Source: Escherichia coli (GTDB lineage Bacteria; Pseudomonadota; Gammaproteobacteria; Enterobacterales; Enterobacteriaceae). From it: a stretch of 365 nucleotides of DNA. The DNA lies in assembly GCF_003334335.1 (NCBI RefSeq), contig NZ_QOWQ01000205.1; one strand, 5' to 3'. Of this stretch, positions 192 to 266 are shown in pieces (positions within the stretch are counted from its first letter, which is position 1; each line of letters opens with the position of its first letter). The position numbers and the translations under genes were made by a program. The notes below the pieces were generated by a model. It was given only the letters and a program-made list of their open reading frames with translations, did no database searches and was not told the origin of the DNA.

Positions 192-198
192 GGTATTT

Positions 199-205
199 AC
201 CTCTC
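199..205 (-). promoter_or_regulatory. Shine-Dalgarno / ribosome-binding site for the CDS starting at 191
   Basis: Minus-strand sequence 5'-GAGAGGT-3' (complement of + strand 199..205), followed by a 7-nt spacer AAATACC and then ATG. The AGGT core has canonical spacing. Confidence 0.55.
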
Positions 206-266
206 TGAGTCATGACGATGACACTGGCAAATCAGGTGATAAAACCTAAAAGGAGCAGAACACACG

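Follow-up and report, generated by a model that had tools for sequence, protein, structure and literature searches.

The irmA gene that follows the intergenic spacer described here is probably expressed mainly by read-through from agn43, with at most weak internal initiation in this spacer allele. The window, i.e., the whole 365-nucleotide stretch of E. coli DNA that was analysed, carries on its minus strand the yeeR-irmA intergenic region of the agn43(flu)-yeeR-irmA operon, which is the spacer under study, and the operon is borne by a CP4-44-like island inserted at tRNA-Ser. We identified the locus, the operon architecture and the allele state of the spacer, and found no consensus promoter elements in it; the dominance of read-through over an internal start is, for this allele, the most likely interpretation. 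The secreted protein IrmA mimics a cytokine receptor and is regarded as a vaccine candidate, and whether its expression is tied to the antigen 43 phase switch or is autonomous decides when a lineage displays it. The locus, the cotranscription route and the spacer-promoter route are all already known; the published answers disagree between strains, and the disagreement tracks the spacer haplotype.

The spacer could be assigned to the yeeR-irmA interval because the protein encoded downstream of it matches the PDB entry 5EK5, 'IRMA': in a phmmer search, the full-length IrmA of a matching genome aligned with this entry (E = 1.9e-82) over residues 24–151, which correspond to mature IrmA devoid of its signal peptide. 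No NCBIfam model matches IrmA or the 838-aa YeeR-like protein, to which RefSeq gives the names 'IrmA family' and 'YeeR family', and the identity of both proteins is based on 5EK5 and on the RefSeq annotation. In the matching genome, yeeR is the 838-aa ORF after the Ag43 gene, called 'YeeR family protein' in some RefSeq records. The irmA part present in the window encodes the N-terminal signal peptide and the beginning of the mature secreted protein. The coordinates of all the features discussed below are reported in Table 1.

The window was found in 2,195 of 5,426 complete E. coli genomes, with up to 7 copies per genome, and the best genome matches showed 99.7% identity. The sole difference from them is at position 19 (A on the minus strand), where residue 58 of IrmA is Asp instead of the Gly of the matching genome (GNDEGFGP vs. 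GNGEGFGP). In the best-matching genome the genes are arranged in the order GTPase, Ag43/Cah autotransporter, 838-aa ORF, IrmA-family gene, DUF905, DUF932 and antirestriction, and the same island continues past the latter with yeeS, yeeT and cbeA/cbtA, onwards to the tRNA-Ser beside ghrA. In the window-type island referred to as L001, the Ag43 gene (2616–5462), the 838-aa ORF (5583–8099) and the IrmA-family gene (8175–8630) all lie on the + strand of the locus. The order and the insertion site are identical in CFT073, which carries agn43 (c1273), the 838-aa ORF and irmA (c1275). As for yeeR itself, the full 2,517-bp ORF is found in the window-type island and in CFT073; it is annotated as a 1,134-bp fragment lacking the N-terminus in ST131 strain 5506 and in Nissle EcN, and as frameshifted in FORC_069, whose spacer is of the 4509 type described below.

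Table 1. Features of the window and bases at the positions that vary between the spacer alleles (positions in brackets are relative to the 042 5′-RACE +1).
Feature	Position	Strand	Remarks
yeeR 3′ end	267..365	minus	C-terminus ...MEYDASHLGNMVNRLEEAFPPELPA, stop TAA 269..267
yeeR-irmA spacer	192..266	minus	75 nt, 44% G+C
Shine-Dalgarno-like GAGAGG	200..205	minus	8 nt upstream of irmA ATG
irmA 5′ part	1..191	minus	ATG 191..189, 63 codons, MIHLFKTCIITGVILGLTWSAPLRAQDQ...
Homologue of 88-bp lacZ fragment (pUJ8)	210..296	minus	From primers promirmA fw/rv and alignments
Homologue of BPROM −35	284..289	minus	TTCCCC in the window, inside the yeeR coding sequence
Homologue of BPROM −10 core	257..262	minus	TGTTCT in the window, second-position A lost
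Mutagenised stretch	254..264	minus	Homologues of −20 (264), −19 (263) and −10 (254)
Base homologous to 042 5′-RACE +1	244	minus	T in the window, 4509 and CFT073/ST131; C in 2244
Variable position (−20)	264		Window T, 4509 A, 2244 G
Variable position (−19)	263		Window G, 4509 G, 2244 C
Variable position (−17)	261		Window G, 4509 A, 2244 A
Variable position (−10)	254		Window T, 4509 A, 2244 G
Variable position (−2)	246		Window G, 4509 C, 2244 C
Variable position (+1)	244		Window T, 4509 T, 2244 C
Variable position (+13)	231		Window T, 4509 C, 2244 T
Variable position (+17)	227		Window C, 4509 T, 2244 T
Variable position (+35)	209		Window C, 4509 T, 2244 C

A preliminary description of this DNA had reported a 75-bp spacer devoid of a convincing sigma-70 promoter and had drawn two alternatives from it, co-transcription of irmA with the upstream ORF or dependence on an alternative sigma factor or activator. 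The spacer length is exact (266..192, between the yeeR stop and the irmA start), and the hexamers that had been listed, TTGCCA (230..225), TTCTGC (260..255), TTTTAT (244..239) and TAGGTT (248..243), are all in place when read by hand. The lack of a convincing sigma-70 promoter was confirmed, as neither the consensus scan nor the weight-matrix scan revealed a minus-strand site above background. In fact, the consensus scan gave no sigma-70-like site on the minus strand anywhere in the window, and the sigma-70 matrix gave no minus-strand site in the spacer above the shuffle background.

The weight matrix combined approximate −35 and −10 frequencies from the literature with a spacer-length term and an extended −10 bonus; with it, lacP1 reaches 10.5 and the perfect consensus 18.0. 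The top minus-strand score in the window, 8.2 bits, belongs to TCGTCA (218..213) and TACCAT (195..190) separated by 17 nt; this site was discarded as irmA promoter, since its −10 overlaps the start codon and is thus unusable. In 500 dinucleotide-preserving shuffles the mean top score was 9.3 ± 1.6 bits, and 73% of them scored at least as high as the window. Of the hexamers reported earlier, TTGCCA pairs only with CAGAGA (4.9 bits) and TAGGTT only with ATAACG (3.6 bits). Chance alone would leave a stretch of 75 nt devoid of a consensus promoter, therefore its lack here is unremarkable and not in itself unusual; beyond the haplotype considerations that follow, the finding is a routine observation of an intergenic gap without a consensus promoter.

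No intrinsic terminator was found by scanning the window. The folding of the RNA of the spacer and irmA start gave an MFE of −15.4 kcal/mol, compared to −17.1 ± 3.2 for the shuffles (z = +0.54), and a structured leader or attenuator was rejected, the fold being no more stable than the shuffles. The leader contains an inverted repeat, GTCAT-CGTC-ATGAC, with a 5-bp stem (209..222, minus strand), which is present in the centroid fold; the stability of the surrounding region as a whole is not above that of the shuffles. The sole Rfam match at a permissive threshold, an archaeal snoRNA on the other strand (E = 1.1, 14 bits vs. a gathering score of 38), is below the gathering score and was considered a chance match. 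On the plus strand we observed TTAACC (140) and AATAAT (162–167) spaced by 16 nt, antisense to irmA (9/12 consensus matches), and ATGACA (218) and TAAAAC (240) spaced by 16 nt, the latter preceded by TG, antisense to the spacer (218..245; 9.5 bits); both were rejected as antisense promoters, with scores inside the shuffle range. At the level of translation, irmA appears to have its own ribosome-binding site, the GAGAGG motif, so that translational coupling to yeeR would be unnecessary.

Two routes of irmA expression have been published. RT-PCR linking all three genes revealed an agn43-yeeR-irmA transcript in EC958 oxyR (Moriel et al., mBio 2016, PMC4807369), and 5′ RACE in UPEC mapped the start upstream of agn43, whose promoter is controlled by OxyR and Dam, irmA being repressed by OxyR (PMC4807369). 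In CFT073, the production of IrmA required constitutive expression of the linked agn43b copy, and the copy in which agn43a is followed by an insertion yielded none (PMC4807369). Moreover, irmA was not cotranscribed with the genes downstream of it, and in EC958 oxyR qRT-PCR showed a 121-fold increase for agn43 and 12.9-fold for irmA (PMC4807369); the difference between the two values fits some agn43-independent basal transcription of irmA, or operon polarity. By contrast, in EAEC 042 walking RT-PCR gave no yeeR-to-irmA product, a 5′-RACE end was mapped inside the yeeR-irmA spacer, and the deletion of the flu promoter left IrmA unchanged (Microbiol Spectr 2022, PMC9431211). The strains used in the 042 walking RT-PCR, the wild type and single-irmA mutants, were oxyR+ (PMC9431211). 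When the 88-bp intergenic fragment was fused to promoterless lacZ, the irmA_4509 allele was active and the irmA_2244 allele nearly silent; the +1, −10, −19 and −20 bases of 4509 jointly switched to those of 2244 reduced the expression, whereas single point changes had no significant effect (PMC9431211). The expression of irmA_4509 responds to temperature, nutrient exhaustion, Hha and OxyR (PMC9431211). The −10 predicted by BPROM is, according to the authors, too far from the mapped +1, and they doubted that the BPROM boxes are true elements (PMC9431211).

In the light of these data, the step from the lack of a consensus promoter to the lack of any promoter in the spacer, taken in the preliminary description, does not hold: the irmA promoter of EAEC 042 lies in the homologous spacer, as indicated by walking RT-PCR, 5′ RACE, the 88-bp lacZ fusion and the flu promoter deletion (PMC9431211). 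The same consensus logic would call the active 4509 allele promoterless too, because at the sites compatible with the mapped +1 the weight matrix gave at most 2.4 bits for 4509, as against 1.7 for 2244 and 1.2 for the window. Higher-scoring sites exist elsewhere in the fragment and are identical in all three alleles. An explanation of the different activity of 4509 and 2244 by the weight matrix was thus abandoned, as the differing bases neither create nor destroy sites above about 2.4 bits. Since the active 4509 has no meaningful score advantage over 2244, inspection for consensus elements cannot predict activity here, and at the yeeR-irmA spacer the lack of a consensus promoter does not mean the lack of a promoter. 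That description had also named a mapped start with a recognisable promoter inside 192..266 as contrary evidence: a 5′ end was indeed mapped in 042 at the base homologous to 244, which comes near to this, but the promoter is unrecognisable and the window allele differs. Its other proposal, co-transcription with the upstream ORF, coincides instead with the published UPEC mechanism (PMC4807369), and the architecture needed for it is present in L001.

To map the 042 experiments onto the window, the sequences of the two 042 alleles were taken from the alignment in supplement Fig. S3 and from the primers of PMC9431211, and were confirmed by exact genomic copies in FORC_069 (4509 type) and SK1144 (2244 type). 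The mutagenesis primer Mut_prom_4509 replaces AG with GC, A with G and T with C; therefore, −20/−19 correspond to window 264/263, −10 to 254 and +1 to 244. If transcription began at window 244, the leader would be 53 nt long.

The window carries a third spacer allele, distinct from both 4509 and 2244. At +1, −10, −19 and −20 the active 4509 has T, A, G and A and the window T, T, G and T, i.e., two of the four bases match, and the remaining two (−20 and −10) match neither 042 allele. The predicted −35 box TTACCC and the hexamer TATTCT, the latter contained in the predicted −10 box GAGTATTCT, are read in the window as TTCCCC (289..284) and TGTTCT (262..257), respectively. TTACCC is found at the BPROM −35 in the 042, CFT073 and ST131 alleles, and TATTCT at the −10 core in both 042 alleles, CFT073, ST131 and E. 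coli B; the G at 261 of the window is replaced by A in all the other alleles sampled. In the last 40 nt of yeeR, the window is unlike both 042 alleles at 288, 278 and 276; the variable site 303, also in yeeR, is A in the window and in 2244 and G in 4509. The frequency of the alleles was estimated by counting, among the 5,426 complete E. coli genomes, those with an exact copy of the 88-nt fragment: the 2244 type is the commonest (1,014 genomes), followed by the CFT073/ST131 type (648), the window type (200, with strain 503025 as an example) and the 4509 type (37).

Among eight sampled alleles, 6 of the 15 variable columns of a 161-nt alignment lie within the 21 nt of 244..264 (hypergeometric P 0.006 if all alignment columns are considered and 0.025 if only the spacer is, which is weak evidence, the segment having been picked post hoc). 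The genome of SK1144 (NZ_AP018784.2) carries, at 4480627, 4239225 and 826822, three haplotypes, the window, 2244 and CFT073/ST131 types, and offers a natural system for comparing three spacer haplotypes in one cell.

We infer that the two papers are compatible: the spacers that are mostly of the silent type would depend on agn43, and the rare 4509 haplotype would have its own promoter, because the strains in which cotranscription was described, CFT073/ST131, carry a largely silent-type spacer. The spacers of CFT073 c1275 and of one ST131 genome are identical; they agree with 2244 at −20, −19 and −10, and their +1 is T. The use of an oxyR mutant, in which agn43 is fully on, for the RT-PCR in one study and of oxyR+ 042 strains in the other also fits this reconciliation.

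For the window allele, read-through would start with transcription from the agn43 promoter, which is phase-variable, under OxyR/Dam control and located about 5.8 kb upstream of irmA, and the transcript would extend across agn43 and yeeR as far as the hairpin just after irmA, whose translation would depend on its own GAGAGG ribosome-binding site; if transcription also began in the spacer near window 244, the promoter responsible would be weak and non-canonical. Judging from the sequence of L001, this route appears architecturally possible in the window-type island, because the agn43 switch is there, no convincing terminator precedes irmA and a terminator follows it. In the flu regulatory region of L001 there are three GATC sites, arranged as GATCG-N14-GATCG-N8-GATCG (2363–2399; 0 expected in shuffles), and the switch seems to be intact, as suggested by the predicted OxyR-binding region with these three sites; the agn43 leader hairpin is at 2557–2584. 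Between agn43 and irmA, a pattern scan for terminators detected nothing more than a weak 6-bp stem that lacks a proper T tract (5669–5684). The same type of scan predicted a terminator, a 12-bp hairpin followed by a T run, at 8655–8683, 25 nt past the irmA stop, and this hairpin agrees with the report that irmA is not cotranscribed with the downstream genes (PMC4807369). A second terminator-like hairpin was observed after the DUF905 gene (8964..8993).

The comparison of the alleles argues for read-through as well: the agn43-dependent CFT073/ST131 carry silent-type bases at −20, −19 and −10, and the window matches 4509 at only two of the four tested positions and has both predicted boxes altered. 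On the other hand, read-through is not universal, because irmA of EAEC 042 does not need the flu promoter and gave no yeeR-irmA RT-PCR product (PMC9431211). The window allele might have an active irmA-proximal promoter like that of 042 irmA_4509, with a start near 244 and independent of agn43 phase variation, which we consider possible though, on balance, unlikely. The spacer is homologous to that of 042 and has the same length, the 5′ end found in 042 falls on the homologous base, and lacZ is expressed from the 88-bp fragment of 4509 (PMC9431211); the window also has the T at +1 and the G at −19 of the active 4509, which speaks against read-through as the main route, and it carries none of the 2244-specific bases at the four positions. 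Since single point changes in 4509 were without significant effect (PMC9431211), partial matches may suffice. However, the window differs from 4509 at −20, −10, −17 (by which TATTCT becomes TGTTCT), −2, +13 and +17, and three further differences are in the yeeR 3′ end, including one in the predicted −35. Moreover, the exact 4509 type is rare (37 genomes), so its activity may be a peculiarity of that haplotype, and the RACE end could be either primary or processed, as neither TAP nor pyrophosphatase is named in the text of PMC9431211.

A promoter inside the yeeR coding sequence (267..365 or further upstream), which would lead to agn43-independent expression with partial cotranscription of yeeR, seems improbable to us. 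The window does contain the −10-like hexamers TATGAT (338..333) and TATGGT (315..310), yeeR in L001 has several plus-strand sites with 9/12 matches (10 in the region vs. 5.1 ± 2.3 expected), and ST131 and Nissle keep irmA behind a 5′-truncated yeeR. The sites in the window, however, are paired with poor −35 hexamers, and their score of about 6 bits is lower than the mean of the shuffles; RACE in 042 and EC958 reported no such start (PMC9431211, PMC4807369), and in CFT073 the insertion downstream of agn43a abolished IrmA from that copy (PMC4807369). About as improbable is a spacer promoter that needs an alternative sigma factor or an activator, the second option of the preliminary description: the responses of irmA_4509 to temperature, nutrient exhaustion, Hha and OxyR (PMC9431211) and the lack of good sigma-70 elements in the 4509 promoter fit dependence on such a factor, but motifs for sigma-E, -32, -54, -28, -S (extended −10), OxyR and CRP, searched in 320..189 as consensus strings, were no better than in shuffles (the fraction at least as good ranged from 0.22 to 0.99), a coarse test that misses weak sites and tips the balance neither for nor against this option.

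Read-through from agn43, with any spacer start near 244 being weak, is therefore the interpretation that we prefer for the window allele. It is tempting to speculate, although we regard it as rather doubtful, that the segment 264..244 (−20 to +1) is a regulatory hot spot that switches irmA, depending on the lineage, between agn43-coupled phase-variable and autonomous expression, the window being a third functional haplotype.

The allele most closely related to that of the window is the spacer of E. coli B (ATCC 11303), which has the same bases at 288, 278, 276, 264, 263, 254, 246, 244 and 227; it differs in keeping A at 261, which leaves TATTCT intact, and in having an extra T that aligns between window 206 and 205, immediately before the ribosome-binding site (CTCATGAGAGG). 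This insertion gives a 76-nt spacer and an out-of-frame ATG, and CEA106S has the same T insertion on an otherwise 2244-like spacer. The 2244 allele shares with the window the length, T at 231, C at 209 and the absence of A at −10 and −20, but none of its four specific bases at the tested positions occurs in the window. The 042 irmA_4509 promoter (PMC9431211) has in common with the window the spacer length, T at +1 and G at −19, and from +1 to the ATG the two leaders are the same except for three bases (231, 227 and 209); upstream of +1, the A of 4509 is replaced in the window by T at −20 and −10 and by G at −17, and the C at −2 by G. In the IrmA signal peptide, the translated window reads CIITGVIL, compared to CMITAFIL in the 042 alleles. 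With respect to the CFT073/ST131 type, the window differs at 264, 263, 261, 254, 246 and 227 in the spacer and at 293, 288, 278 and 276 in the last 30 nt of yeeR. The agn43-yeeR-irmA operon of UPEC EC958/CFT073 (PMC4807369) shares with the window-type island the gene order and strand, the tRNA-Ser/ghrA site of CFT073 c1273-c1275, the 75-nt spacer together with its ribosome-binding site, the three GATC sites of the flu regulatory region and, after irmA, a hairpin that resembles a terminator.
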